From: a virus
Reading direction: 5' to 3' (one strand)
DNA: 55,105 nt
UHGV virus genome: UHGV-0308106
The notes beneath the pieces are model-generated. The model searched no databases and had not been told where the DNA came from. It saw only the letters and a program-made list of their open reading frames with translations. Position 1 is the first letter of the stretch, and each line of letters opens with the position of its first letter. Shown here piece by piece: positions 19,876 to 38,366 of the stretch. The translations under genes were made by a program, and so were the position numbers.

Positions 19876-20349
19876 ATGGCTGCATTAAAACCTGATGTGA
19901 AAGCCTTCATCATTCAGTCGCTTGCGTGCTATGACACGCCGACGCAGGTGGTTGAGGCTGTCCAAAAAGAATTCGGGATCAAGATCACCCGCCAGCAGGC
20001 TGAATCTCACGACCCCACGAAGGCCAGCGGTAAGACGCTCGCCAAAAAGTGGATCGAGATGTTCCACGCTACGCGCGAACGGTTCCTGACCGAAACCAGC
20101 GACATTCCGATCGCGAACAAATCCTATCGCCTCCGCGTGCTTGACCGCATGGCAACCAAAACCGAGGGGATGAAAAACTTCTCCCTGACGGCGCAGCTGA
20201 TTGAACAGGCCGCGAAAGAGGTTGGCGACGCTTACACCAATAAGCTGAAGGTTGAAAGCACTGGCAAGGATGGCGGCCCGATCAAGACCGAGACGACCAA
20301 CCTCACCGCAGATCAGGCCGCAGAGATTTACCGCAAGATGATGGGGTGA
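19876..20349 (+). CDS. putative terminase small subunit
   Basis: 157-aa ORF upstream of large terminase; paralog at 37662-38135. Confidence 0.5.
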   Translation: MAALKPDVKAFIIQSLACYDTPTQVVEAVQKEFGIKITRQQAESHDPTKASGKTLAKKWIEMFHATRERFLTETSDIPIANKSYRLRVLDRMATKTEGMKNFSLTAQLIEQAAKEVGDAYTNKLKVESTGKDGGPIKTETTNLTADQAAEIYRKMMG

Positions 20350-25619: not shown

Positions 25620-25833
25620 TCCAATGACTGCATATCTGTACCTTATGCAACTAATATCTATTAATCAGTGCGTTATCGTTCGGAATCATACTGCGTTACT
25701 GGCCTGAACCATAAAAATGACACTCCGAACATGTGCGGATTTATTCGCCGGATTTCGCTTTGATTCGGTACGTGAGGGACTAGAGCGAGAATCATGCGCC
25801 GTTTGCATTACATGGTAGCCAGAGAGGTGTTGA

Positions 25834-27063
25834 ATGATTGTTAGGCCACTAACTAACGTCGAAGTGAAAAGCGCGAAGGCACAGGGCAAGGATTTCAGTT
25901 TGCACGATGGTTTCGGTTTGTTGCTTTACATCACAAGCCGGGGCGGTAAGTCATGGCGTTTTCGGTATGTACACCCGGTAACGAAGAAGAGACAAACCTA
26001 TACCATTGGAAGATACCCGGAGTTTACTTTGTCCGAAGCGAGGGAGGAACGTTCGAAACTGCGCCGTATGGTAGCGCGGGGGATAGATCCGAACGAAGTC
26101 AAAAAAGATACCAGGAATGAACAGCGTAAAATGTACGCGCAGTCATTTCAGGCCGTTGCCGATGAATGGCTAAAAATCAAGATTAAAGAAGGTGCGAGAA
26201 GCAACACGCTTGAATCGCACAATGTGACGTTGAAGCATCTTTCCACGATTTTTAGGCATACCACAGTACATAAAATAAACGCAGCCGATACTATTCAGGC
26301 TTTTAAACCTTTCAGGGAAAGGCCATCAACGCTTACGAAAATGGTTATTACCATCAACGCCATAATGGATTATGCGGTAAATATTGGGGTTATTGAGCAC
26401 AACCCACTATCGAAAATTGGTAAAGCATTCCCGGCTGAAAAAAACGAACCAAGAGCGACTTTACAGAAAGAGCGGTTGCCAGAATTTTTAAGCGCATGGA
26501 ACGAGTTGAGCTTATGGGAGCCATCAAAGCTGGCATTATTATTTCAGATCATTACGATGGTCCGACCTTCGGAAGCTGGCGGCGCTCTCTGGAATGAGAT
26601 TGATTTTGATAATTCAATCTGGCAAATCCCTGCAAGCCGGATGAAAGGAAAGCGCCCCCACGTAGTCCCATTATCGAGCCAGGCTATAAACGTGCTTAAA
26701 GAGGCCGAAAAGTGGAAGCGCTGCGATTATGTTTTCCCCTCATGGCGAAAAGAAAATAAGCCGATCTCACGATGTGCGACTCAGGCCGGAATACACAAAA
26801 CGTCGTTTAAAGGAATGATTGTTCCTCATGGGTTCAGGGCGTTGGCATCTACAGTTTTAAATGACGAGGGGTTCAACCCTGATGTGATTGAGGCTGCACT
26901 CGCTCACAAAAGCGCCGATGCGATTCGAAATGTTTATAACCGTAGCGACTATCTGGAAAAACGCCGGGTTTTAATGCAATGGTGGGGGGACTTTATCGAG
27001 GCCGCAGAGCGTGGAGAGATACTGGAGACCAGCGGCGATAAGGGCTTAAGGCTGGTTGTGTAG
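25834..27063 (+). CDS. int: tyrosine integrase (P4-type) of nested element
   Basis: 409-aa ORF; N-terminal arm-binding-like GKSWRFRYV; catalytic domain (HGFRALAST, AALAHKSADAIRNVYNR). Confidence 0.85.
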   Translation: MIVRPLTNVEVKSAKAQGKDFSLHDGFGLLLYITSRGGKSWRFRYVHPVTKKRQTYTIGRYPEFTLSEAREERSKLRRMVARGIDPNEVKKDTRNEQRKMYAQSFQAVADEWLKIKIKEGARSNTLESHNVTLKHLSTIFRHTTVHKINAADTIQAFKPFRERPSTLTKMVITINAIMDYAVNIGVIEHNPLSKIGKAFPAEKNEPRATLQKERLPEFLSAWNELSLWEPSKLALLFQIITMVRPSEAGGALWNEIDFDNSIWQIPASRMKGKRPHVVPLSSQAINVLKEAEKWKRCDYVFPSWRKENKPISRCATQAGIHKTSFKGMIVPHGFRALASTVLNDEGFNPDVIEAALAHKSADAIRNVYNRSDYLEKRRVLMQWWGDFIEAAERGEILETSGDKGLRLVV

Positions 27064-27104
27064 GGCATATCCATTTTTGGATAATTATGATTTCAAACGG
27101 GAAT

Positions 27105-27129
27105 AGCTGGCTTTAAGCCAGCTTTTTTT
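27105..27129 (+). terminator. intrinsic terminator after integrase
   Basis: agctggc-tttaa-gccagct hairpin followed by tttttt. Confidence 0.55.
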
Positions 27130-27206
27130 ATGCCCAAAGCTAACCGGAATGCGTTTTTTTTTATTCAAATCATATATAATCATATCGAATATATACGGAG
27201 GTTTTT

Positions 27207-27419
27207 ATGTCTATAAGTGGCGGTGATATTCTGCTAAAAGGTGAAGTGAAAGCGCGTTTACGTTATCGCTCAGACTCGTCATTCTACGAGTTTCTAAAAG
27301 ACGAGAAAAACGGCTTTCCAATGCCTTTTAAAGTCGGTGGGCGTAACTGCTGGTATGAAGATGAAGTAGATGCCTGGATAAGTAAACAAAGCGAGAAGCG
27401 CGGGATCTGCACATCATGA
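27207..27419 (+). CDS. AlpA-family transcriptional regulator
   Basis: 70-aa ORF; GGAGG SD; short HTH protein (FPMPFKVGGRNCWYEDEVDAWI) adjacent to integrase. Confidence 0.65.
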   Translation: MSISGGDILLKGEVKARLRYRSDSSFYEFLKDEKNGFPMPFKVGGRNCWYEDEVDAWISKQSEKRGICTS

Positions 27420-27558
27420 ATGTTTGCAGATTTGGGAAAGAGGGCTTGCTAACGGCTATCCGGGCAAGCCCTTTTTATTGTCAGTGGTGGGGATCTGTAA
27501 CTTACGGCCACCAGCGCCGGTAATCACCTTCTGGCTGGTGGCTTCACTGGCATGGCTA

Positions 27559-27918
27559 TTACGCTGCCGCATCATCTGAATTGAATTCAATGTGAATTCG
27601 GTCATAAGGCAGCACGATTTTTTCGCCGTCTTTGTCCAGAACGCCGCCGTTAAGCAGTGACTGAACATCGTTATAAACACCGCGAAAATCACGGTTAACA
27701 ATGCGTGATAGTTCGCGGATTGATACGGCTTGCGCTCCCTCCATCGCTTTGATGATCTGCCAGCGGTTAGGGGCAAGCATAGTTTTAGCCAGTTGTTCTA
27801 CAGTGGGAAAAATCAGTTCGGAACCGATGAAATCCCCGTTCATTGCGCGGGAGGCGTCGGACATTGCCACCCGGAAAGCATCATCAACGGTCATTACTCT
27901 GACGGTCAGCACTCGCAT
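27559..27918 (-). CDS. winged-HTH protein (antitoxin/regulator-like)
   Basis: 119-aa ORF, GGAGG SD, 4-bp gap after upstream 93-aa gene; HTH-like AVSIRELSRIVNRDFRGVYNDV. Confidence 0.5.
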   Translation of the reverse strand: MRVLTVRVMTVDDAFRVAMSDASRAMNGDFIGSELIFPTVEQLAKTMLAPNRWQIIKAMEGAQAVSIRELSRIVNRDFRGVYNDVQSLLNGGVLDKDGEKIVLPYDRIHIEFNSDDAAA

Positions 27919-27922
27919 GGTA

Positions 27923-28204
27923 TTACCTCCTCAACAGGTTTATGTCAGCCTGAAAGCTGGCGATCAGGTTCTCAATGGTGGTGAATGTCACCGGATATTC
28001 CCGATCATGGATGTGTTTGTGGTCGCCTTTGCCACGTTCGTTGTCGTAACGCATGACGCACTCGCCATCTACGATGTAGGCCAGACTGTACTTGTATTGG
28101 TGCTGGCTACCTAAAATTGCCGGGTCTACTTCCAGAATGCGGATCGAGGCGAAAGCGTTATCAGCTATCTGGATACGGCGGTTCATCAACTCAACAGCGG
28201 GCAT
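27923..28204 (-). CDS. small protein (toxin-like partner, family not recognised)
   Basis: 93-aa ORF, AAGGAG SD, operator palindromes immediately upstream. Confidence 0.45.
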   Translation of the reverse strand: MPAVELMNRRIQIADNAFASIRILEVDPAILGSQHQYKYSLAYIVDGECVMRYDNERGKGDHKHIHDREYPVTFTTIENLIASFQADINLLRR

Positions 28205-28220
28205 TGGCTTATCTCCTTGT

Positions 28221-28270
28221 TGATGTAAATAATAACATCACAAACGAATGATGTAAATGATTACATCATT
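28221..28270. promoter_or_regulatory. inverted-repeat operators upstream of two-gene cassette
   Basis: tgatgt-aaataata-acatca (28221-28240) and aatgatgtaa-atga-ttacatcatt (28247-28270). Confidence 0.45.
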
Positions 28271-28412
28271 GCGGGTAAGTTACCGATGGCATGAACGGTT
28301 CGCTGCTGGTGGCTCTCGATCTCCTGAAAGCTCAGGATATTGCCGGGCATGATTTTAATCGGCGGACTTTTCGGCCGATTGAATACGGGCAGTTCGCTCC
28401 CTGTGTATCGGC

Positions 28413-28552
28413 TTCGTTTCTGGATGATTCGCGTTTCGTTTCTGGTGAATTCGCATTCGCAATTTGTCCGCGAAGCCTTATCAGGCCTGATTTGAGCGGT
28501 GCTCTCTCTTTGCGAATTCGCAGTTCCATTTCGCACTTTGATTCGCAGTTTT
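28413..28552. repeat. cluster of palindromic GAATTCGC/GATTCGC motifs
   Basis: Tandem 20-mers ttcgtttctggatgattcgc (28413-28432) and ttcgtttctggtgaattcgc (28435-28454); further gcgaattcgca and gattcgca copies to 28552; overlapping ORFs look non-coding. Confidence 0.4.
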
Positions 28553-28713
28553 CAAATGTTCCCATTCCGGGGACACGGACGATTAGACAGGTGTTACAAA
28601 CGTTGGTGGTGAAATATCTTCTTGCGCTGGCGGGCACGGTGTGGTTATGATTATTTCGCACCTCACAAAACGGGTGCCGGGCGTGAGAACCCGGATAAGG
28701 TCAAAGGCGACAA

Positions 28714-28737
28714 CAGACGCCTATCGCGTCTTTTTTT
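28714..28737 (+). terminator. intrinsic terminator in leader upstream of icd-like gene
   Basis: agacgc-ctatc-gcgtct stem followed by tttttttt. Confidence 0.4.
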
Positions 28738-28931
28738 TGTCGCAATGTCAGTACCCCCATATGTAGCGGCGCAGATCCGCGCACAGAATCAATGGTGGCT
28801 CTGGCAGGGCAGCTTTCGGGCTGGCCGGTTCCCTTTGACGCCGGTATTCTCACCCCTGTCAGTGTCACCACCCTTTAGAGCGTGAGAACTCAGGTGGTGG
28901 CTCCTTAAATTAGTCAAAGGAGATCATCATC

Positions 28932-29129
28932 ATGATGACTATCCCTACCCTCGCTCAAACAAAATTCACCTGGCGCTTTCTCGCGCTGAATCGCCACGAT
29001 AAAAAAGCCAAACCTTGCCGTCTGTCCGTTGAGGCTGCGACCGAACGCGAAGCCCGCCGCATCCTTGCGCCGCACTTTATTTTGTCTCTGGCCGCACGTC
29101 TGCCAGTGCCGGAGGTGCGTCATGTTTAA
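28932..29129 (+). CDS. Icd-like small protein (P4 family)
   Basis: 65-aa; KFTWRFLALNRHD...RLSVEAATEREARRILAPHFILSLAARLP resembles Icd/Ash proteins as recalled. Confidence 0.45.
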   Translation: MMTIPTLAQTKFTWRFLALNRHDKKAKPCRLSVEAATEREARRILAPHFILSLAARLPVPEVRHV

Positions 29130-30000
29130 CCTCCAGACACTGACAGCTAAAGCCCGTGAGCTGCGCGGCAACGTCGTTAAAGCGGCGAGCACAAAGGGAA
29201 GTCGCACCATGACTCCTGTCTATGACCGTGACGAGCAGCGCAAGCTACGCGAGCGCATCCAGCAGACACAGCCCGATTGGGTGTTGCTCTGGTGGGATAT
29301 TGCGACCGTAACCGGCTGGCGTACCAGCGACGTTTGCAACCTGCGCTATTCCTGCGTCAATTGGGAAACGGGGCAGGCGACAATTATCGTTGCCAAGCAG
29401 ACCAAAGCCGCCGAAGCGCGGGCAACCCGCAAAGGTATTGAAATTGTGCGCCAGCAGCGCAAGGACGCCGCGCGGCTCGCCGCTGACCATATCGCCTACA
29501 TGAAGTGGGATAGTATCGGTTGTGACGAACTGGCCGCCGATATGAACGACGAGGAACAGGCGATTGTGTTCGGGCTGGTGGCAAAGGCTGACGTCAAGCA
29601 CGACACCAAACAGTTACCGCCCGGCATTATCAAGCGGCTGCGTGACCGTCAGGATCGGAATCTGGTGGAGGACGACCTGGTATTTTCACGCTCTCAAATC
29701 GAAAGTAACCGTTGTCAACGTCTGGAAGGTAGCGTTACTCGCCAAACCATCTGGCGCAAACTTCATGGCGTCATGGCGTGGTTTACCCGTTTCATTAACG
29801 CTAAATTGCGCCTGAGCGCGTACTCAAGCCGAAAAATAGCAGCCTTTAATCTTATGTCCGCAGGTGGCGAACAGGGATTATTGGTGGCTTCTGAAATGCT
29901 GGGGCATAGCAACCCGGCGATAACTCGCACTTACCTTCAATTAGGCAGCAAAGCCGCCGCTATCCAGTCCCGTTTAGCAATGGAGGTGTGCCATGCGTAA
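29122..30000 (+). CDS. tyrosine recombinase-like protein (catalytic domain only)
   Basis: 292-aa from ATG 29122 (GGAGG SD); WDIATVTGWRTSDVCNL and C-terminal LGHSNPAITRTYLQ; no N-terminal core-binding domain. Confidence 0.55.
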   Translation: MFNLQTLTAKARELRGNVVKAASTKGSRTMTPVYDRDEQRKLRERIQQTQPDWVLLWWDIATVTGWRTSDVCNLRYSCVNWETGQATIIVAKQTKAAEARATRKGIEIVRQQRKDAARLAADHIAYMKWDSIGCDELAADMNDEEQAIVFGLVAKADVKHDTKQLPPGIIKRLRDRQDRNLVEDDLVFSRSQIESNRCQRLEGSVTRQTIWRKLHGVMAWFTRFINAKLRLSAYSSRKIAAFNLMSAGGEQGLLVASEMLGHSNPAITRTYLQLGSKAAAIQSRLAMEVCHA

Positions 30001-30172
30001 TCTCTTTCATATCACTGGCTACGCCGTCAATAAACGCGGCCTGACAGTCGGTTTTAGCTATCTCATCGACGCCGAGGACGCCATGCAGGCAAAAGTTAAT
30101 GCCATTGCTGAGGCGAAAGACGATGAACTCACCCACGTATCTATTGCCCGTATTCTGGAGGTGGCAGCATGA
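29993..30172 (+). CDS. hypothetical small protein
   Basis: 59-aa ORF not in track; GGAGG SD; coupled to neighbours. Confidence 0.35.
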   Translation: MRNLFHITGYAVNKRGLTVGFSYLIDAEDAMQAKVNAIAEAKDDELTHVSIARILEVAA

Positions 30173-30381
30173 GCAAAGTATCCCTGGCCGATTCAACCTG
30201 CCGTATCCAACAGGCGCAGGAAGTCCTGTCTCTCTGGCTTGAGGCGACGAATAAAAACGATAGCGGCACGGCTAAATTAATCGGCGCAATCATTTCCCTT
30301 CTGGATGGTATCCCCGAATTGATGGATTCAGTAGAGGATGAATTGGCTGGCATGGACTTAAAAGCGATGGATAAAGCATGA
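30169..30381 (+). CDS. hypothetical protein
   Basis: 70-aa ORF, ATGA coupling on both sides. Confidence 0.4.
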   Translation: MSKVSLADSTCRIQQAQEVLSLWLEATNKNDSGTAKLIGAIISLLDGIPELMDSVEDELAGMDLKAMDKA

Positions 30382-31004
30382 GCAACGTAGAGAAATTCAC
30401 ACCGGGAAATGCCGACTTATTACACGCCGAAGCCACACCGCACGGCGTAAACATCATGACCCGCAATGATGCCGGGATGTATGAGCATGTAGCCATTATC
30501 ACCTATGAGAGCGCTGTAAGCCGTCTGGATGCGGGAGAGTACGACGATACGCCAGATATCGGCTACGCCATTCATTTTGCCGTTGCTGATGGCGGGGCGC
30601 GTGGCTGGTTCGACTTTACCGCGCAGCATGAAGTAACCATGTGGCGCTGGCTGATTGCTGCGACGTTCGTTTCTGAGATGAAGCGCGAAAACGGCACAAC
30701 CTCCGTCACGGAGGCTGACGGCACAACATCGCAGGTGGCGATTTACTCCAATGGTAATGCGGGCATGGTGATTTACCCGTTTGCTGAACGGCTGGCGATG
30801 GCGAACAACATCGAGGGCGCAATGATTGAGCGATACGGCGTCGAACAGGGTACGGAAAAAGCCATTGTGTTTTATCAGGCCATGCTGGATACGGAGCGCG
30901 GCGAGCTTACCCCGTTCGGACGTGAAACGCTGGCAGAGCTACACGATCACTTCATTGCTGATCTGGATGAAAACGGCTGGCCTGAAATGCCAGCGGCGCA
31001 CTGA
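30378..31004 (+). CDS. hypothetical protein
   Basis: 208-aa ORF upstream of primase in same operon. Confidence 0.45.
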   Translation: MSNVEKFTPGNADLLHAEATPHGVNIMTRNDAGMYEHVAIITYESAVSRLDAGEYDDTPDIGYAIHFAVADGGARGWFDFTAQHEVTMWRWLIAATFVSEMKRENGTTSVTEADGTTSQVAIYSNGNAGMVIYPFAERLAMANNIEGAMIERYGVEQGTEKAIVFYQAMLDTERGELTPFGRETLAELHDHFIADLDENGWPEMPAAH

Positions 31005-31016
31005 GGGAGCGACACA

Positions 31017-33797
31017 ATGCGTAATATCGACCTTATCCGCGAAGTGACCAGCGCCGCAGCAGGGCGCTGGCCTTATGTGCTGGCTGGGTTGTCTATCGAC
31101 GTGCCTGATTCATCGCGCCGCCATTCTCCATGCCCTGCATGTGGTGGAAAAGACCGTTTCAGATTCGACGACAACGGGCGCGGTAGCTTTATCTGCAACC
31201 AGTGTGGCGCTGGTGACGGGCTGGATTTAATCAAGCGGGTTAACAACTGCGACACTACGGAGGCGGCACAGCTTGCCGCTGACGTGCTGGGTATTGATTA
31301 CCGGGCAGCGCAATCCGACCCGGTGGCAGCGAGCCATATAAGGGAGCAACTGGAAGCTGACCGCCAGCAGCGTGAGCAGGAGCGCCAGAAACAGGCAGCA
31401 GGGGACGCAGAGCAGCGAAGGGCTACGTTTGCCCGTCTGTATGCCGGAATGCGCCAGAGTGCCACACAGGGCGAATCTGATTACCTGCAATCAAAAGGGC
31501 TGACCGGGTTTAACTATCCGGTTATGCCTGATGGTTCGTTATTGCTGGAGCTGGTGGACGAATCCGGCGCAGTGGCAGCAGCGCAAACCATTACACCGCA
31601 GGGAGAGAAGCGACTCCTGACAGGTTCAGCAAAGCGCGGGGCATATCACGCCGTAAACGCGCCAGAATCGCCGCAGAGCGTTTTAATTGCCGAGGGGCTG
31701 GCGACGGCCCTTTCAGTTCACCTGATGCGCCCGGACGCGCTGGCAGTGGCAGCAATTGACGCGGGCAACCTGCTACCCGTTGCCGAAGTGATGCGCCGGA
31801 AGTACCCACAGGCACAAATCATCATTGCCGCAGATAACGACCAGATGGGCGAAAGTGACGGAATTAAAGGAGTGAAAGTTAACACTGGCAAGGAGGCCGC
31901 AGAGAAAGCCGCGAAAGCCGTTTCTGGCTGGGTTTCCATGCCACCAGTGGACTATAAAGCGGACTGGAACGACTACCACCAGCAATACGGCCTCGAAGCG
32001 GCCACAGCAGCATTTAACGACTCAATGTATCAACCGGAGGGTAAGAAAGTGGGTGCGACACTGACAGCTATCGACGGCGGCAAGAAAAAACTTGGTATCG
32101 ACGACGATCTGAAACCGCGAGTAGAGAGCCGTGCGGATGGCATTCACTGGATCACCCCGAAAGTGGACAAAGACACAGGAGAAATTATCAATACCGAGGC
32201 GTGGCTATGCTCTCCGCTGGAGATTGCTGGTGCGGGGAGTGATAACGCCAGACAGCGCTTTCTGATCCTGCGTTGGGACGTCCCCGGCAACCGGGGGCAA
32301 GTTACCCGTGCGCTTCCATGGGAGGACATTGGCGACCGTGAGGGATGGCGCACGCTGAAAAACGGCGGTGTCAGTGTGACAACCAAACCATCGTTGCGGG
32401 CAATTCTGGCCGACTGGCTGCAGCGAACTGGTAGCGGCAAGGAATGGCAGATCAGCCACACCACAGGCTGGCACAACGGGGCGTACATCATGCCGGATGG
32501 TGATGTTATTGGTGAGCCAGAGATACCGCTGTTATTCAGTGGTCGGAGTGCGGCGGCTGGTGGCTATACCGTCAGTGGAACGCCGGAAAGCTGGCGTGAT
32601 TCGGTGGCGCGTCTTGCGCTGGGAAACCCGTCAATGATGCTGGGCGTTGCTGCTGCGCTTTCTGCGCCGCTGATCGGGCTTGTTGGCGCTGACGGGTTCG
32701 GCGTGCATCTTTTCGAGCAGTCCAGCGCAGGGAAGACAACCACCGCCAACATTGCCAGCAGTTTATACGGTGAACCGGATGCCTTGCGCCTTACCTGGTA
32801 CGGTACAGCGCTGGGTATCGCCAACGAAGCGGAAGCGCATAACGACAGCCTGTTACCGCTGGATGAAGTGGGGCAGGGCAGTAGCGCCAAAGACGTTGCT
32901 ACGTCTGCTTACACGCTGTTTAACGGTGCCGGAAAGCTACAGGGGGCCAAGGAGGGCGGCAACCGTGAGTTAAAGCGCTGGCGCACCGTGGCGATCAGTA
33001 CCGGGGAAATGGACATTGAGACGTTTCTTTCTGCTGGTGGGCTGAAAGTTAAGGCCGGGCAACTGGTGCGATTGCTTAATTTACCGATGGAGAAATCAGT
33101 AACGCACCATGAGTACCAGAACGGGAAGCAACACGCCGACGCACTCAAAGAGGCTTACCAGACGAACCACGGAGCCGCAGGCCGTGAATGGATTAAATGG
33201 CTTGCAGGCCACCAGCAGGAGGCAAAACAAGCTGTCAGGGCGGCGCAAGAGCGCTGGCGCAGTCTTATCCCCGCTGATTATGGCGAACAGGTTCATCGTG
33301 TCGGTGAGCGGTTCGCCATTCTGGAGGCGGCGCTGGTGCTGGGGATGCCTGTCACTGGTTGGGGGGAGCAGGAAAGTCGGGACGCTATCCAGCATGGCTT
33401 TAATGCTTGGGTAAAAGAGTTTGGCACGGGGAACCGTGAGCATAAGCAGATCATCGAGCAGGCAGAGGCGTTTCTTAATGCCTACGGCATGAGCCGTTTC
33501 GCGCCGTTCCCGTATAGCCCGGCTGACATGCCGATCCGGGATTTAGCCGGATACCGTCAGAAAGGTGAGCATGACGAAAGCCCCGTAGTGTTCTACACCT
33601 TTCCGGCTGCGTTCGAAAAGGAGATAGCGCAGGGCTTTAATGCGAAACAGTTTGCCCGTGTGCTGGCCGGGGCTGGGGTACTGAAACCGCCAGCCAGCGG
33701 AAGGGGATATCAGCGTAAATCCCCGCGAATTGATGGACGCCAGATAAACGTTTATGTGCTCCAGCTACGACCCGACGAGATAGAGGGCGAAGAATAA
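31017..33797 (+). CDS. primase-helicase (P4 alpha-like)
   Basis: 926-aa; zinc ribbon CPACGG...CNQCG; TOPRIM-like AEGLATALSVH and IIAADNDQ; P-loop-like SSAGKTT. Confidence 0.9.
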   Translation: MRNIDLIREVTSAAAGRWPYVLAGLSIDVPDSSRRHSPCPACGGKDRFRFDDNGRGSFICNQCGAGDGLDLIKRVNNCDTTEAAQLAADVLGIDYRAAQSDPVAASHIREQLEADRQQREQERQKQAAGDAEQRRATFARLYAGMRQSATQGESDYLQSKGLTGFNYPVMPDGSLLLELVDESGAVAAAQTITPQGEKRLLTGSAKRGAYHAVNAPESPQSVLIAEGLATALSVHLMRPDALAVAAIDAGNLLPVAEVMRRKYPQAQIIIAADNDQMGESDGIKGVKVNTGKEAAEKAAKAVSGWVSMPPVDYKADWNDYHQQYGLEAATAAFNDSMYQPEGKKVGATLTAIDGGKKKLGIDDDLKPRVESRADGIHWITPKVDKDTGEIINTEAWLCSPLEIAGAGSDNARQRFLILRWDVPGNRGQVTRALPWEDIGDREGWRTLKNGGVSVTTKPSLRAILADWLQRTGSGKEWQISHTTGWHNGAYIMPDGDVIGEPEIPLLFSGRSAAAGGYTVSGTPESWRDSVARLALGNPSMMLGVAAALSAPLIGLVGADGFGVHLFEQSSAGKTTTANIASSLYGEPDALRLTWYGTALGIANEAEAHNDSLLPLDEVGQGSSAKDVATSAYTLFNGAGKLQGAKEGGNRELKRWRTVAISTGEMDIETFLSAGGLKVKAGQLVRLLNLPMEKSVTHHEYQNGKQHADALKEAYQTNHGAAGREWIKWLAGHQQEAKQAVRAAQERWRSLIPADYGEQVHRVGERFAILEAALVLGMPVTGWGEQESRDAIQHGFNAWVKEFGTGNREHKQIIEQAEAFLNAYGMSRFAPFPYSPADMPIRDLAGYRQKGEHDESPVVFYTFPAAFEKEIAQGFNAKQFARVLAGAGVLKPPASGRGYQRKSPRIDGRQINVYVLQLRPDEIEGEE

Positions 33798-33811
33798 AAC
33801 ACACATACGAG

Positions 33812-34104
33812 ATGTTTTTTTGTTGGTTCAGTTGGTTCAGTAACTATTTAATTAAGATAAGTATATGTATTTAATATATTTCTATACCCATAAGTGAACC
33901 AACACTGAACCAACAAATACCCATTTTGAACCAACAAATGCCGCTATTGAACCAACGCCCTTTTCTGGCTGGCCTGTAAATCTTTCCCACTGAACCAACA
34001 CGAAAATAGCGTTTGTTGGTTCAAAACAAGGCTTTGTTGGTTCACTCCTCAAGAAATAATCCTTACAAAACAACAATCTTTACAAATTGAACCAACTGAA
34101 CCAA
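33812..34104. repeat. iteron array / candidate origin of replication
   Basis: 12 copies of GAACCAAC in both orientations (e.g. 33812, 33821, 33886, 33897, 33918, 33939, 33982, 34005, 34026, 34079, 34088, 34097) flanking an AT-rich tract 33830-33880. Confidence 0.65.
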
Positions 34105-34397
34105 CTGAACCAACATGTTTTTGTTTATCTATAGAGTTTTTTCGGAGAGTAATTACGAATTTGGAGGGGCATCGCCTAAGCGACAGTATGCGGAAACGGC
34201 AACTTTGCGGAGCGGAAAAGAAAAAGCCCGCGCTGGAGAGGCGAGGGCTTTTGTTAACCATGTTTATGCAATCACACAATGGTGGATCACCGTCATAGTA
34301 CCACGTCGATTTATCATTTCAATGTACGCAATGATGTTTACTAATATTGCAATTTATGCAATGATCAGAATTTAAACAACGCAAAAGGTTATGAACA

Positions 34398-34961
34398 ATG
34401 AAACAGATAACCAATGTTAATCTGGAAAGTGATAACGCTGGTGGTACAGTCGAGGTGACTTACTCCGATGATACGTTCGAAAGGCTGACCTGTTCGCTGC
34501 CTGTGGCTCTCGTCATTGCGAACCTTGCAACGACGCTTAAGCAGGAACGTGCAACACGCATTGCAACCGGCGACCGCCTGCGCCGGATGTATACCCGCGA
34601 TAGTGACATGATTACCCGCAGCGGCAGCGGCGCTTCTACGACCTCCACCGCGCCAACGTCAATGGACGCTGAATTTATGCGCCTGGTACGCGCTGTAGCA
34701 CCAAAGTATGACAACGCCCTTCCTGATACCGATCCTCGCCTTGTTGCGCTTGATGTGCTGCGTTACGCACCCGCTGAGGCATTCAGTGCGGTACACCCGA
34801 CCCCGCTATCAGAGATTCAGCTTGATCAGGCTATCGACGTTCTGGAACAGGTTGGCGACTACATGCGAGTTAACAACGTTTCACCGAAGATTCTCACCAC
34901 AGGCGACGCCATTCGCAGCATTAACACCGACAACGCCAGTTTCTGGCATCGCACGAAGTAA
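34398..34961 (+). CDS. hypothetical protein with scaffold-like C-terminal motif
   Basis: 187-aa; C-terminus TTGDAIRSINTDNASFWHRTK resembles helper 24387-25619 C-terminus. Confidence 0.5.
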   Translation: MKQITNVNLESDNAGGTVEVTYSDDTFERLTCSLPVALVIANLATTLKQERATRIATGDRLRRMYTRDSDMITRSGSGASTTSTAPTSMDAEFMRLVRAVAPKYDNALPDTDPRLVALDVLRYAPAEAFSAVHPTPLSEIQLDQAIDVLEQVGDYMRVNNVSPKILTTGDAIRSINTDNASFWHRTK

Positions 34962-34967
34962 GGAGCA

Positions 34968-35162
34968 ATGAGCATGGCTATTTATGACCCGAAATTAGCA
35001 GCAGGAAACCCGCAAAGCGCCGGGCGTAAACTCTTTGGCCGTGAACAGGCCGAGCAATTGCGGATGCGTAACAACTTCAACAACGAATGCCGCAATCTGG
35101 AAAAAGTCAACGAAGCGAATGCAAAGTTCTGGAGTGAACAGGATGAAAAAGCCAAACGTTAA
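34968..35162 (+). CDS. hypothetical small protein
   Basis: 64-aa; contains NAKFW near C-terminus. Confidence 0.4.
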   Translation: MSMAIYDPKLAAGNPQSAGRKLFGREQAEQLRMRNNFNNECRNLEKVNEANAKFWSEQDEKAKR

Positions 35163-35310
35163 GCCGGTATTACTCTCTGGCGACCAGTTCGCCGCAATCT
35201 GCAAGATCCAGGAGCGCGAACGCCAGCGCTCCGATATTGGCGTAGCGCCGTCTGTCCATCAAATTGCCCGTGGGCTGGTGGCGAAAGCGCTGGCATCAAT
35301 TCAGGAATAA
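35143..35310 (+). CDS. hypothetical small protein
   Basis: 55-aa from ATG 35143 with GGAG SD. Confidence 0.3.
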   Translation: MKKPNVKPVLLSGDQFAAICKIQERERQRSDIGVAPSVHQIARGLVAKALASIQE

Positions 35311-35315
35311 CGACT

Positions 35316-36383
35316 ATGTCATATAACTGGATGCGCCATTTCGAGCTACAGCTCATCGATGAGAATGGCAAAGGAATTAGCCTTAGTGATTTCAAAGTTA
35401 CCTTTGATATAGAGCGTAACGATAACAAATGGCCAGCTGTTGCGACGGTCAAGATCTACAACCTTTCACCAACTACTCAGAACCGTATTATGCAACGTGA
35501 GTTTGCCAAAATTGTGTTGATAGCGGGGTATGATGGTCGTGCGCAGGATGTAAGGGCAAGTGATGTGGGGATTGCACGTGAAATATCAGCAAGCGAAGTG
35601 GGCCAGGCTAACGGCGCAAACTACGGAGTCATTTTCAGCGGTGATATCCGCTTCACTGTGACCGGAAAAGATAACCCTGTCGATTCATGGGTACAGGTGC
35701 AGGCTTGTGACTCTGTGGAGGCGTTTACCAGCGCATTTATCAACACCACTATCAGCAAAGGCTACACCACAGAAGATATTTATGTTGAGCTTATGAAAAG
35801 GCTGGAACCTTACGGCATTTCTCGCGGTATTGTTCCTGAATTCCCGGCAACGGTATTTCCTCGCGGTCGAGCCCTCTTTGGCTATGTCCATAACTATCTC
35901 GATGAAGTGGCCGCGCAGTGCAAAGCCACTTGGCAATTCAACTATGGAAAAGTCGATATTGTTCCCAGAGACAAGGCCACTCATGAAGCTGTGGTTCTCA
36001 ACGCTAATACCGGGCTTATCGGTATGCCTCAGCAGACCATCGGTGCGGGTGTGAATGTCAAATGCCTGATTAACTCACGGATTCACCTGAACGGGCTTAT
36101 CCAACTGGATCAGGCTTCGGTATATCGTAGCGCCTTATCTGCGGATCAAATTGCCCAAGCTGGTGGGCCAATTTCGGTGGAAAGCCAAAACGGAAACCTT
36201 GTCACTACTGGATTAACGCAGAGTCCGGCGAGCATTGCTACCGATGGTATCTATAAGGTTCGGTATATCAGTTACACGGGCGACACGCGCGGTCAAGCGT
36301 GGTATATGGATCTGGCGTGTGAGGCTCGCGGGAATTCTGATTTATTTTCAAGTTCATTTATGAATAAGCAGAGTGAAGAATGA
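35316..36383 (+). CDS. baseplate hub-like protein (paralog of 47472-48536)
   Basis: 355-aa; about 70 percent identical by eye to helper hub-like protein (MSYNWMRHFELQLID vs MSLNWMRHFELQLLD). Confidence 0.5.
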   Translation: MSYNWMRHFELQLIDENGKGISLSDFKVTFDIERNDNKWPAVATVKIYNLSPTTQNRIMQREFAKIVLIAGYDGRAQDVRASDVGIAREISASEVGQANGANYGVIFSGDIRFTVTGKDNPVDSWVQVQACDSVEAFTSAFINTTISKGYTTEDIYVELMKRLEPYGISRGIVPEFPATVFPRGRALFGYVHNYLDEVAAQCKATWQFNYGKVDIVPRDKATHEAVVLNANTGLIGMPQQTIGAGVNVKCLINSRIHLNGLIQLDQASVYRSALSADQIAQAGGPISVESQNGNLVTTGLTQSPASIATDGIYKVRYISYTGDTRGQAWYMDLACEARGNSDLFSSSFMNKQSEE

Positions 36384-36724
36384 AGAAGATTATTTTACTG
36401 ATTGGTTTATTGGGCGCATCTGGAAGTCATGCTGCGCAGGTTATTACCATGCAGTGCGGAAACTTTCGCTTTGAGATGATAGAAAACTCGATGGCGAGAA
36501 TTAATGGTGAGTATGTAACATCTCAGAAAATTACAGAGTTCGGACAGAACGGGGCAAAAGTAGAAATGACGCTTATGCCTGCCAGCGATGGGAATCTGTA
36601 TGGGTTTGAATACATCCATCCTGACGGTAGCAAAAAGCGCTGGCTGAATGTTGAGCTTATCCGCACCAATATGAATCAGGCGCGGATCATTGGCTCGTTT
36701 GATTGTAAGCGCGTGAAGGGGTAA
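36380..36724 (+). CDS. secreted small protein (paralog of 48549-48893)
   Basis: 114-aa; signal peptide MKKIILLIGLLGASGSHA; two Cys; shared C-terminal DCRKVK. Confidence 0.5.
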   Translation: MKKIILLIGLLGASGSHAAQVITMQCGNFRFEMIENSMARINGEYVTSQKITEFGQNGAKVEMTLMPASDGNLYGFEYIHPDGSKKRWLNVELIRTNMNQARIIGSFDCKRVKG

Positions 36725-36732
36725 GGGGAATC

Positions 36733-37395
36733 ATGCCATTCATTCGACCCGCAAATGAGCAGGATGTAACACAGCTTGTTCAGGACAATGCTAAAGCATC
36801 TGTAACCAATGCGTTACCTGGCATTATTCGTTCGTTCGATCCCGAAACTGTCACCTGCGATGTTGATATAGCCATTACGGCAAGAATGACGAAGGCTGGC
36901 ACAATGGGTGAAGATTTCCAGTATGAGTCCGTCCGCTATCCGATTCTTAACGATTTGCCTGTGGTTTTTCCGCGCGGGGGCGGAGTTACGCTTACTTTCC
37001 CGGTTAAAGATGGTGATGAATGCCTCATCGTATTCTCTTCGCGTTCGATTGATTTCTGGTGGCAGAACGGCGGTGTGCAGGAGCGAGCTGATGGGCGTAT
37101 TTTAGATCTGTCTGATGCGTTCGTTATTCCTGGCCCCCAATCACAGGTAAAGAAGATATCCAATATCAGTACCAACGCTGCGCAGCTGCGTACAGATGAT
37201 GGAGCGGCATTTGTAGAGGTGTCCGCTGGTGGAGCCATTACTATTACCAGCTCTCAAATCACCCTTAACGGGCCCGTGCAGGTAAACGGAACGATCACTT
37301 CCACTGGCGACCAAACGGCCAACGGTATCAGCCAGATTAACCATACCCACGGCGGCGTACAATCAGGCGGCAGCAACACAGGAAAACCACAATGA
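36733..37395 (+). CDS. baseplate spike protein gpV-like (paralog of 49430-50170)
   Basis: 220-aa; PGIIRSFDPETVTC, FPRGGG, C-terminal HTHGGVQSGG; about 65 percent identical to helper gpV. Confidence 0.7.
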   Translation: MPFIRPANEQDVTQLVQDNAKASVTNALPGIIRSFDPETVTCDVDIAITARMTKAGTMGEDFQYESVRYPILNDLPVVFPRGGGVTLTFPVKDGDECLIVFSSRSIDFWWQNGGVQERADGRILDLSDAFVIPGPQSQVKKISNISTNAAQLRTDDGAAFVEVSAGGAITITSSQITLNGPVQVNGTITSTGDQTANGISQINHTHGGVQSGGSNTGKPQ

Positions 37396-37571
37396 GCAAT
37401 ATTGAAAAACTGAAACCAGAAGAAAGCGGATCCAGCCAGAATGGTAAGGTTCGTACCTGGCTGGATGATATCAACGGGCAGCCGGAACCAGATGGTATTG
37501 GCAGCTTCGGTGAGAGTGCGATCTGCGAAGAATCACGCACAGCGGAAACCATGCGAAATAACGTAGGGTGA
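37392..37571 (+). CDS. hypothetical small protein
   Basis: 59-aa ORF, ATGA overlap with gpV-like stop. Confidence 0.3.
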   Translation: MSNIEKLKPEESGSSQNGKVRTWLDDINGQPEPDGIGSFGESAICEESRTAETMRNNVG

Positions 37572-37599
37572 CGGTCAGATGACGTGATCTGTAACTTTA

Positions 37600-37647
37600 A
37601 GTAGCGGTGCAGGGGCAGAACTCAGCACGCTACTTTTATTTTCTTTG
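37600..37647 (+). terminator. intrinsic terminator upstream of orphan small-terminase paralog
   Basis: agtagcggtgc...gcacgctact stem with one bulge, followed by tttattttctttg. Confidence 0.5.
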
Positions 37648-37661
37648 TCAAAAGGTGAACA

Positions 37662-38135
37662 ATGGCGGCATTACCAACAATGGCTAAGGTTATGATTATT
37701 CAATCATTAGCTTGCTACGAACCCCCTTCCAGAATCGTTGAGCTTGTAAAACAAGATTTTGGCATCGTCGTTACCCGGCAGCAGATATCGGCCTACAACC
37801 CTGAAAATACAATGGCAAAAAATCTTAGCCAAAAATGGGTAGAACTCTTTAATCACACTCGCGCCCGCTTCCAGAGTGAAATATCCGAGATCCCTATCGC
37901 TAACAAAGCGTACCGGCTGCGTATGCTCGATCGCATGGCTAACCGTGCAGAGGCAATCAAGAATTACGCATTAACAGCGCAGCTTATTGAACAGGCCGCG
38001 AAAGAGTGCGGGGACGCTTACACCAACAAATTAAAGGTTGAAACAACGGGTAAAGATGGTGGTCCGATCAGAACGGAAACAACGAACTTAACCGCCGAAG
38101 AAGCCGGGGAGGCATACCGCAAATTTATGGGATAA
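37662..38135 (+). CDS. small terminase paralog (orphan)
   Basis: 157-aa; same length as 19876-20349 product, C-terminal half nearly identical; no large terminase or portal follows. Confidence 0.5.
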   Translation: MAALPTMAKVMIIQSLACYEPPSRIVELVKQDFGIVVTRQQISAYNPENTMAKNLSQKWVELFNHTRARFQSEISEIPIANKAYRLRMLDRMANRAEAIKNYALTAQLIEQAAKECGDAYTNKLKVETTGKDGGPIRTETTNLTAEEAGEAYRKFMG

Positions 38136-38366
38136 CCACCAGCGCCGTGACACGTCACACGCAAAAATAGCACCGCCCATTAATGGGCTGGTGGCACAGC
38201 TTGCATATTGAAATTCCCTGTAAATCTTACAGATCTGGTATTGAGTAACTTACCCCATTCAGCGCCATACATCACAGAGCAGCCTATGGACTACACACAA
38301 AATCAGGCTGCAAATAAATCCTTATATTTCAGTTGATTAAATAATAGCCTTGCATTCCTGTACCGG

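Follow-up and report, generated by a model that had tools for sequence, protein, structure and literature searches.

C4-family RNAs are stable RNAs of ∼77–79 nt that are processed from a leader transcript, repress the operon downstream and confer immunity. The immI operon of phages P1 and P7 is made up of c4 RNA, icd and ant, and its targets are a1 b1 and a2 b2. It was reportedly worked on by Citron and Schuster in 1990 and by Biere et al. in 1992.

P4 seqA and CI have their structural homologues in the IsrK and C4 families, respectively (PMC3632133). In Gifsy-1, IsrK terminates at its own terminator, and read-through leads to a processed RNA of ∼80 nt (PMC4825925). The C4 and isrK profiles also match Gram-negative PICIs and helper-embedded PICIs (PMC10111431).

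Here we analyzed the interval 28270–28931 of UHGV virus genome UHGV-0308106. The window, i.e. the whole stretch of DNA that was analyzed, is 55,105 nucleotides long. The interval runs from a gene pair on the minus strand to an icd-like ORF on the plus strand and consists of two unrelated parts, a 5′ non-coding TTCGC module and a 3′ immunity cassette. The cassette, 28622–28931, is very probably an antisense RNA immunity cassette of the P4/P1 type, carried on a PICI-like satellite. This kind of system is already well known, and standard RNA family models detect the cassette. A sequence-only reading of the interval had put forward P4-like RNA immunity, and this idea is borne out by homology: both C4 and isrK score above their gathering scores, and the locus aligns with PLE-seqA-cI-seqC of P4. 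The sequence features listed in that reading exist, but the anatomy proposed from them is wrong and the decisive parts were overlooked.

The C4-type RNA gene, its leader and its targets

The antisense RNA gene lies at 28788–28875 on the plus strand and matches the C4 / P4 CI family (Rfam RF01695) over model positions 1–87 of 87, with 78.8 bits against a gathering score of 45 (E = 1.4e-14). Its minimum-energy fold (−41.6 kcal/mol, z −4.1) matches the family structure. In both the model alignment and the independent fold, a long closing helix surrounds two hairpins, and one loop and one joint stay unpaired. The loop, which belongs to the second hairpin, carries b′, CCUUUGAC (28832–39, plus strand). 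The single-stranded joint carries a′, UUCUCAC (28847–53, plus strand).

An IsrK / P4 seqA-type leader RNA was found at 28658–28736 on the plus strand with Rfam RF01394 (61.3 bits against a gathering score of 50; model positions 1–77 of 77). A point against the cassette reading is that the Rfam sub-model c4-a1b1 reaches only 18 bits in this region, below its gathering score (46.7). From 5′ to 3′, the leader contains a first hairpin, a second hairpin whose loop holds target a1, then target b1 and an intrinsic terminator. As located by a terminator scan, this terminator consists of a stem-loop at 28715–28731 on the plus strand, followed by T8 up to 28738. A hairpin and T-run had been claimed at 28714–28737 and are indeed present. 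Because the hairpin lies upstream of the antisense RNA gene, it is not the site at which the antisense RNA would halt transcription; instead, the IsrK/seqA-type leader has its intrinsic terminator here.

Transcription is predicted to start at the G at 28658, which equals position 1 of the isrK model. The predicted promoter is PLE-like, with a −35 element TTGCGC (28622–27), an 18-nt spacer and a −10 element TATGAT (28646–51) on the plus strand. The −10 element aligns with the annotated −10 of the P4 early promoter (record X02534), and the segment 28639–28681 is 100% conserved in the related loci L005, L007 and L013. The −35 element is a weak match that agrees with the consensus at 3 of 6 positions, which explains why a simple promoter scan made no call here.

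The C4 gene is flanked by two target pairs, one upstream and one downstream, all on the plus strand. In the leader, a1 (GUGAGAA, 28683–89) lies in a hairpin loop and b1 (GUCAAAGG, 28700–07) follows the a1 hairpin. The downstream target region, 28876–28931, is the equivalent of P1 a2/b2 and of P4 seqC. It holds a2 (GUGAGAA, 28882–88) ahead of icd, and b2 (GUCAAAGG, 28913–20), which overlaps the icd Shine-Dalgarno sequence AAGGAG (28917–22), 9 nt upstream of the ATG at 28932. In DNA form the repeated targets read GTGAGAA and GTCAAAGG. These target pairs, together with the C4/CI RNA gene itself, are the parts that the earlier reading had missed.

a′ is perfectly complementary to a1 and a2 over 7 nt, and b′ is perfectly complementary to b1 and b2 over 8 nt. 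The duplex energies are −35.0 and −25.7 kcal/mol, compared with −20.7 and −16.6 kcal/mol for dinucleotide shuffles. An energy of −35.0 was reached by 0 of 500 shuffles and one of −25.7 by 5 of 500.

We compared eight immunity types (sources: E. coli, Enterobacter, Apirhabdus, and metagenomic and viral contigs), and a change in the C4 segment is always accompanied by changes in both of its targets. There are five a alleles (a′ UUCUCAC, UUUCCAC, CUGUCAA, CUGCUAA and ACGCCAA) and five b alleles (b′ CCUUUGAC, CCUUGUAC, CUAUAGUG, CUUUAUCG and CUAGAACG), and a and b reassort independently among the eight types. The b2 target overlaps the AGGAG of the downstream gene in 8/8 types. When L001 is compared with the window, 95% identity stops exactly at the start of a1, and L001 has other a and b segments than the window. 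The homology, the RNA structures, the complementarities and the three-way covariation are shown at these loci, and the covariation is the strongest evidence for the predicted pairing scheme. The cassette set provides clean natural compensatory variants, from which mutual immunity between satellites could be predicted.

Proposed control of the icd operon

The icd/kil-like ORF (28932–29129, plus strand, 65 aa) matches NCBIfam NF033153 phage_ICD_like with 79.5 bits. It is the first gene of an operon that extends up to the primase, in which the ORFs overlap by 4–8 nt. The operon continues on the plus strand with a tyrosine-recombinase-like gene (29122–30000; Pfam), three small ORFs and a Toprim/DUF927 primase gene (31017–33797; Pfam).

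We propose that the PLE-like promoter starts transcription near 28658. Some transcripts would stop at the intrinsic terminator (28715–38) and yield an ∼80-nt RNA of the IsrK/seqA type that carries a1 and b1. Read-through transcripts would carry the C4/CI RNA (28788–28875), which would be excised as a stable small RNA, and its exposed b′ and a′ would base-pair with the a2 and b2 targets of transcripts of this kind. Since b2 covers the icd ribosome-binding site, pairing there would block the translation of icd. Because the ORFs from icd to the primase overlap, the untranslated message would be expected to end prematurely, and the translationally coupled genes through the primase would be kept off. 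With its replication operon off, the satellite would be quiescent and protected against superinfection by a copy of its own type. The a1/b1 pair may act as a second pairing site, which either aids termination, as in P4 seqA, or titrates C4 and activates the operon, as in Gifsy-1 IsrK. For the RNA processing, the translational block, the Rho-dependent polarity and the direction of the a1/b1 effect, this scheme follows by analogy the literature on P1, P4 and Gifsy-1. The overlap of the downstream target with the icd Shine-Dalgarno sequence points to translational repression with polarity, in the P1 style, as the putative primary event; the sequence is compatible with directed termination in the P4 style as well.

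Alternatively, the main task of the cassette might be to switch on induction, as in Gifsy-1 IsrK, and not to repress in the service of immunity. The trans-acting species would then be the short terminated leader; it would target C4 or the read-through transcript, and the downstream operon would be turned on once the ribosome-binding site is freed. The leader does score above the isrK gathering score and has its own terminator. Both C4 targets are present in it as exact copies, which would allow it to titrate C4, and in Salmonella the short IsrK activates translation of downstream ORFs (PMC4825925). However, the closest DNA relative of the cassette is P4 itself, and replication genes, with no antirepressor, lie downstream here. 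A passage of PMC3632133 that cites Sabbattini 1995 states, moreover, that the homologous P4 seqA is required to establish immunity. We regard the induction switch as a possible but rather doubtful main role. It is compatible with immunity repression, which we prefer. As an immunity cassette, the locus adds little new biology: RNA immunity of the P4/P1 type would also control the replication operon of a satellite in a non-lambdoid prophage.

The host satellite and the TTCGC module

By its architecture, the element that carries the cassette is a PICI-type satellite of the helper-embedded kind, published in 2023 (PMC10111431). It is ∼12.7 kb long and carries int (25834), alpA (27207), the cassette, the recombinase-like gene, the Toprim/DUF927 primase gene and an iteron origin. 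The origin has ∼14 GTTGGTTCA iterons (33819–34115) and directly follows the primase gene. The element also carries captured tail-type genes and its own DUF2280 gene (37662–38135). The prophage genes on either side of the inserted element are the DUF2213 gene (to 25619) and the cement/minor capsid gene (from 38367), and the core CTGTACC is present at both element ends (25636–42 and 38358–64). The joined element ends (attP) were found on two metagenomic contigs, L013 and L014. A terminator hairpin stands behind alpA, followed by ∼870 nt up to the TTCGC module.

Pfam matches identify a divergent gene pair on the minus strand, made up of a TumE toxin-like gene (27923–28204) and an HVO_A0114-like gene (27559–27918). 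Next to this pair, a repeat scan found two copies of the 20-bp near-palindrome TGATGTAAATnATnACATCA within 28221–28268 (strand not assigned), and a promoter scan found a promoter-like site on the minus strand at 28257–28229. The TGATGTAAATnATnACATCA copies are likely the operator/promoter of the TumE/HVO_A0114 pair (27559–28204). The whole block is absent from L001, and it lies outside the immunity cassette.

The TTCGC module is a non-coding segment of ∼270 bp (28296–28566, plus strand), with borders taken from the insertion in L016 as compared with L031. It contains a Chi site (28305–12), a hairpin (28319–40) and the palindrome ATCGGCGGA-CTTT-TCgGCCGAT (28358–79), which has a G-G mismatch in the window copy. 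These are followed by tandem 22-mers (28413–28434 and 28435–28456) that are 82% identical, by five direct 12-mers ATTCGCRnTTyn on the plus strand (28427, 28455, 28516, 28528 and 28541) and by the palindrome TGCGAATTCGCA (28511–28522). Within 28290–28600 (311 nt), TTCGC was observed 8 times on the plus strand versus 0.46 expected from the window's own frequency. This cluster is the densest in 55 kb. GCGAA occurs just 2 times on the plus strand. In all other loci, three repeats are exactly 12-bp phased, whereas one 12-mer of the window copy has an extra T. The tandem repeat that had been described as 20-mers is present, but its unit is 22 nt. At least five palindromic motifs had also been counted; the TTCGC cluster behind this count is real, but it consists mostly of direct repeats, and only TGCGAATTCGCA is truly palindromic.

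These repeats and the tandem 22-mers had been proposed as the leader sequences to which the immunity RNA pairs. In favor of this reading, the motif shows strong enrichment and a strand bias. However, the repeats lie upstream of the promoter, 100–360 nt ahead of the transcription start, GCGAA and complements of the 12-mer are absent from both C4 and the leader, and P4 has no counterpart. In architecture B, a 356-codon gene stands between the repeats and the cassette, and in L016 the repeats are located after the primase gene. The actual targets were found elsewhere, covarying with C4. Since they have no complementarity to the immunity RNA, the GAATTCGC/TTCGC repeats are refuted as its targets, and we give that anatomy practically no credence. 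Judged from its sequence, the module takes no part in the RNA immunity mechanism.

The region had been said to lack convincing coding potential, and this was upheld across 10 related loci, Pfam and PHROGs. A protein encoded by 28291–28650, perhaps an eta-like gene of the Bro network that is coupled to alpA as in P4, would agree with several observations. In E. coli EC2001, PGAP annotates a "hypothetical protein" at the corresponding position, an ORF of 101–129 codons is open in most relatives, the ORF of L001 begins 5 nt past alpA, and P4 eta is found at the equivalent place (PMC10111431). However, the variable columns of this longest ORF fall 18:27:20 over the codon phases in the 10 related loci, with no excess of third-position substitutions. 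Frame-shifting 1-nt indels occur among close relatives (window, L003/L006 and L004; 4 lineages). Searches of the ORF against Pfam and PHROGs gave no family match, and only 8 related predicted proteins, of varying length, were found among 5.8 billion. An intrinsic terminator also stands between alpA and the ORF, and the segment is not open in L016. With aperiodic codons, frameshifts and no family match, coding on either strand of 28291–28650 was rejected as very improbable. The annotation calls "hypothetical protein" and "ash family protein" in the region correspond to non-coding or RNA features.

The module is a separate, non-coding and transposable-looking segment that occurs in three arrangements. 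It lies beside the cassette in the window, is split off from it by an unannotatable 356-codon gene in other loci, and is relocated in L016. There it forms a clean insertion of ∼275 bp downstream of the primase gene and the iteron origin, and the empty site is present in E. coli G5 (L031). Among complete E. coli genomes, 4 of 5426 carry the module. An AlpA-guided scan of genome contigs gave one module locus, in Apirhabdus. Phage and plasmid collections gave no match, and in IMG/VR and metagenomes the module is confined to this satellite family.

Several roles for the module were considered and rejected or weakened. The main replication origin is instead the iteron array at 33819–34115, directly after the primase gene, and its GTTGGTTCA iterons are unrelated to TTCGC. 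Three TTCGC-like direct repeats are found upstream of int (25744–25771); the idea of an array that binds AlpA or the arm domain of Int is weakened, since in L016 the module stands beside an unrelated int and alpA. We rejected the palindrome as a core site for the second tyrosine recombinase (29122–30000), because ∼65 of 80 loci with this gene lack it; it tracks the primase/origin type. With Rha/Bro genes, of which the module might be a decayed copy, it has the palindrome alone in common, and tblastn found nothing significant beyond that. The Chi site is not specific to the module, as the window holds 36 Chi sites. As for a structured RNA, the signal is suggestive, the module has no Rfam match at E up to 1, and the single-sequence fold is not significant (z −1.6).

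The palindrome, ATCGGCGGA-CTTT-TCCGCCGAT, is the most invariant piece of the module. Sister satellites that have the same primase and ori and lack the module carry it just past the iteron origin. The same palindrome occurs within the Rha/antirepressor (Phage_pRha) genes of ∼29 viral contigs. In these copies, one palindrome pair is variable and falls on two synonymous third-codon positions, and it is Watson-Crick in every copy (G:C, C:G or T:A). No mention of the palindrome and repeat sequences was found in a literature search.

The module may be a functional cis-acting element of the satellite, either a protein-binding array or a structured plus-strand RNA, centered on the 22-bp palindrome and the phased ATTCGCRnTTyn repeats, with a possible role as a replication accessory, in packaging or in regulation. 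The strong strand-specific enrichment of the motif, the exact 12-bp phasing in all other loci, the movement of the module as a discrete unit and the retention of the palindrome after the iteron origin in module-less satellites are consistent with such an element. So are the palindrome's own fold (z −3.8) and the consensus fold of the module, in which 97.7% of cells stay paired, many substitutions keep G-U on the plus strand only, and the column-shuffle z-score is −4.95 on the plus strand versus −3.74 on the minus strand. On the other hand, conservation of the module is 87–95% compared with 97–99% for the flanking genes. Clustering of invariant columns within the module is not significant (193 of 2000 permutations), and neither is the single-sequence fold given above. 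The window copy carries the G-G mismatch in its palindrome and the extra T in one repeat, the module is missing from E. coli G5 (L031) and from three further loci that have this primase, and its occurrence does not follow that of int/alpA or of the second recombinase. A functional cis-acting element thus seems to us possible but on balance unlikely.

It is more doubtful still that the module, above all the 22–26-nt palindrome AATCGGCNGA-CTTT-TCNGCCGATT, represents a cis-acting element that has yet to be described. If it does, the palindrome would be a nucleic-acid signal common to phages and the satellites that exploit them. It could serve as an accessory site for replication or packaging, as an RNA hairpin that controls expression or as a recombination joint for the shuffling of Bro zones, and the neighboring phased ATTCGCRnTTyn repeats would be an accessory protein-binding array. 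The upstream module with its palindrome is the only part of the locus that might lead beyond known biology.

Comparison with P4, P1/P7, Gifsy-1 and PICIs

The window is 79.7% identical to P4 over 28667–28894 (BLAST, pairwise alignment), and its C4 gene is ∼80% identical to the P4 cI region. The P4 immunity region gives the same pair of Rfam matches, with 60.8 bits for isrK in the seqA region. Both loci have the order promoter, target, terminator-like hairpin, small RNA, target, icd/kil-like ORF and primase operon. In the alignment a1, a′ and a2 are identical (GUGAGAA/UUCUCAC), the −10 elements are aligned, the hairpin and T-run are conserved, and the ATG of the downstream ORF coincides. In contrast, the b determinant is GUCAAAGG in the window and UUCACAGG in P4, whose b allele pair is UUCACAGG/CCUGUGA. 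The satellite in the window thus has the a segment in common with P4 and a different b segment, that is, one of two determinants in common.

P4 differs in further respects. Its eta gene spans the locus, is translationally coupled to vis (alpA) and permits late read-through. The window has no eta frame across the locus, and no ORF spans 28291–28931; immunity bypass on induction may therefore differ from that of P4. The alpA/vis gene of the window lies ∼1.2 kb from the promoter, and the TumE and TTCGC modules make up the gap. The primase of the window is a Toprim/DUF927 protein, and the element lies inside a prophage, whereas P4 sits at a tRNA gene.

Identity with the P1-like phages RCS47, JL22 and D6 is 73–76% (BLAST). 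As in P1/P7 immI, the RNA belongs to the same Rfam family, two target pairs surround the RNA gene, and b2 lies over the ribosome-binding site of the icd gene. In both systems two short segments set the specificity and differ between heteroimmune relatives. However, the P1/P7 operon controls an antirepressor, while a recombinase-like protein and a primase (replication genes) are downstream here.

The IsrK/STnc1160/orf45-anrP locus of Gifsy-1 in Salmonella also has an isrK-type leader with its own terminator and a C4-like RNA behind it (PMC4825925). There, the short RNA was shown to activate an antirepressor gene; the cargo in the window is different, and the role of its leader is predicted.

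As in PICIs and helper-embedded PICIs (PMC10111431, PMC6092414), int, alpA and the primase gene are co-oriented, the iteron origin lies past the primase gene, the immunity RNAs lie between alpA and the replication genes, and the element is found among prophage late genes. The helper is different: published sites of helper-embedded PICIs were mapped in cognates of lambda late genes, whereas the helper here is non-lambda-like and has genes for a Mu F-like protein, DUF1073, DUF2213 and DUF2280.

The module palindrome and similar repeats

The non-coding TTCGC module (28296-28566) contains the palindrome AATCGGCNGA-CTTT-TCNGCCGATT (28354-28383), which was also found in two further settings, namely after the origin in sister satellites and inside Phage_pRha (Rha/antirepressor) genes. 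Copies were located at 13455-13476 of L031 (E. coli G5), 5133-5154 of L034, 3062-3083 of L058 and in about 27 other IMG/VR loci. In the Phage_pRha genes, the palindrome encodes QSADFSADY, or QSAEKSADY on the opposite strand. The free middle pair is Watson-Crick in every one of these gene copies (G:C, C:G or T:A), even though its two positions are both synonymous third-codon sites. A literature search for the palindrome did not find the sequence in any paper.

Three direct TTCGC-like repeats (ATTCGCC, TTTCGCT and ATTCGGT, spaced by 9 and 12 nt) lie 65-90 nt upstream of int at 25744-25771. The stretch TTTCGC..TTTGATTCG upstream of int is similar to 28529-28546 of the module. These repeats could be sites of the arm type or sites for AlpA; alternatively, their likeness to the module may be a coincidence.

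The iteron array and its 3′ neighbourhood

Directly 3′ of the primase gene, an A+T-rich stretch is surrounded by an array of the iteron GTTGGTTCA (33819-34115), with about 14 copies that point in either direction. This array is probably the replication origin of the satellite. The region is kept at 93-95% in three related loci (L016, L022 and L023).

On the minus strand at 34222-34300, in the interval that separates the origin from the late-type genes, the OrzO-P antitoxin RNA family matched with 34.9 bits, below its gathering score of 60. The site includes a strong terminator-like hairpin, AAAAGCCCGCGC...GCGAGGGCTTTT. L016, a tRNA-type relative with unrelated int and alpA genes, has an equivalent hairpin, and the TTCGC module is inserted immediately upstream of it. 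L016 also carries the Rfam int-alpA RNA motif at 1268-1336, with 47.3 bits vs a gathering score of 35.8. The motif stayed below the gathering score in all 13 other related loci scanned alongside L016, and a separate Rfam scan of the window gave no match to it in the int-alpA spacer at E values up to 1.

Extra genes and related cassettes

A TumE-like/HVO_A0114-like gene pair on the minus strand, accompanied by two 20-bp operator-like palindromes (27559-28268), forms an insertion that separates the alpA terminator from the TTCGC module. The pair is missing in E. coli EC2001 (L001) and is therefore an optional cargo cassette. In many relatives (L003, L005-L009, L012-L014, L022 and L023), the module and the immunity promoter are separated by a gene of 356 codons, at the site that corresponds to 28596-28632; the window itself is without this gene. 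The 356-codon gene had no match in Pfam, PHROG or NCBIfam.

The icd stop codon is overlapped by the next gene (29122-30000, 292 codons), which is the second tyrosine-recombinase-like gene and shows the Arg, Arg and His...Tyr motifs. At least 80 IMG/VR loci have this gene in the conserved position behind icd, as do 21 of the 5426 E. coli genomes. The 91 kb plasmid unnamed4 of E. coli ET210 (L002) is a phage-plasmid that includes genes for phage tail and capsid. A cassette composed of the antisense RNA C4, icd, a small ORF and TnpB is present on it twice. The a alleles of the two C4 RNAs differ (UUUCCAC and UUCUCAC) and the b allele is identical.

The satellite within its helper prophage

The whole window contains 36 Chi sites (GCTGGTGG), 28 on the plus strand and 8 on the minus strand, whereas shuffles give an expectation of about 2. 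Prophage and satellite alike have Chi sites scattered through them. Both also carry a gene for a DUF2280 protein of 157 residues, at 37662-38135 in the satellite and 19876-20349 in the helper prophage; relatives share about 71% identity at the DNA level. In analogy to the small terminase genes that SaPIs carry, the satellite gene may be a copy of a packaging-related helper gene.

The satellite (25636-38364, ∼12.7 kb) is inserted among the prophage head genes, with a DUF2213 gene on one side and a cement/minor capsid gene on the other. It comprises int, alpA, the immunity cassette, primase, ori, late-type genes and DUF2280. The 7-bp core CTGTACC occurs at both ends (25636-42 and 38358-64), and the joined ends (attP) were found on two metagenomic contigs (L013 and L014). 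Insertion at this site is also seen in E. coli EC2001, ET791, ABWA45 and ECONIH5. This arrangement is the one published for helper-embedded PICIs (PMC10111431). However, the helper in the window is not lambda-like.
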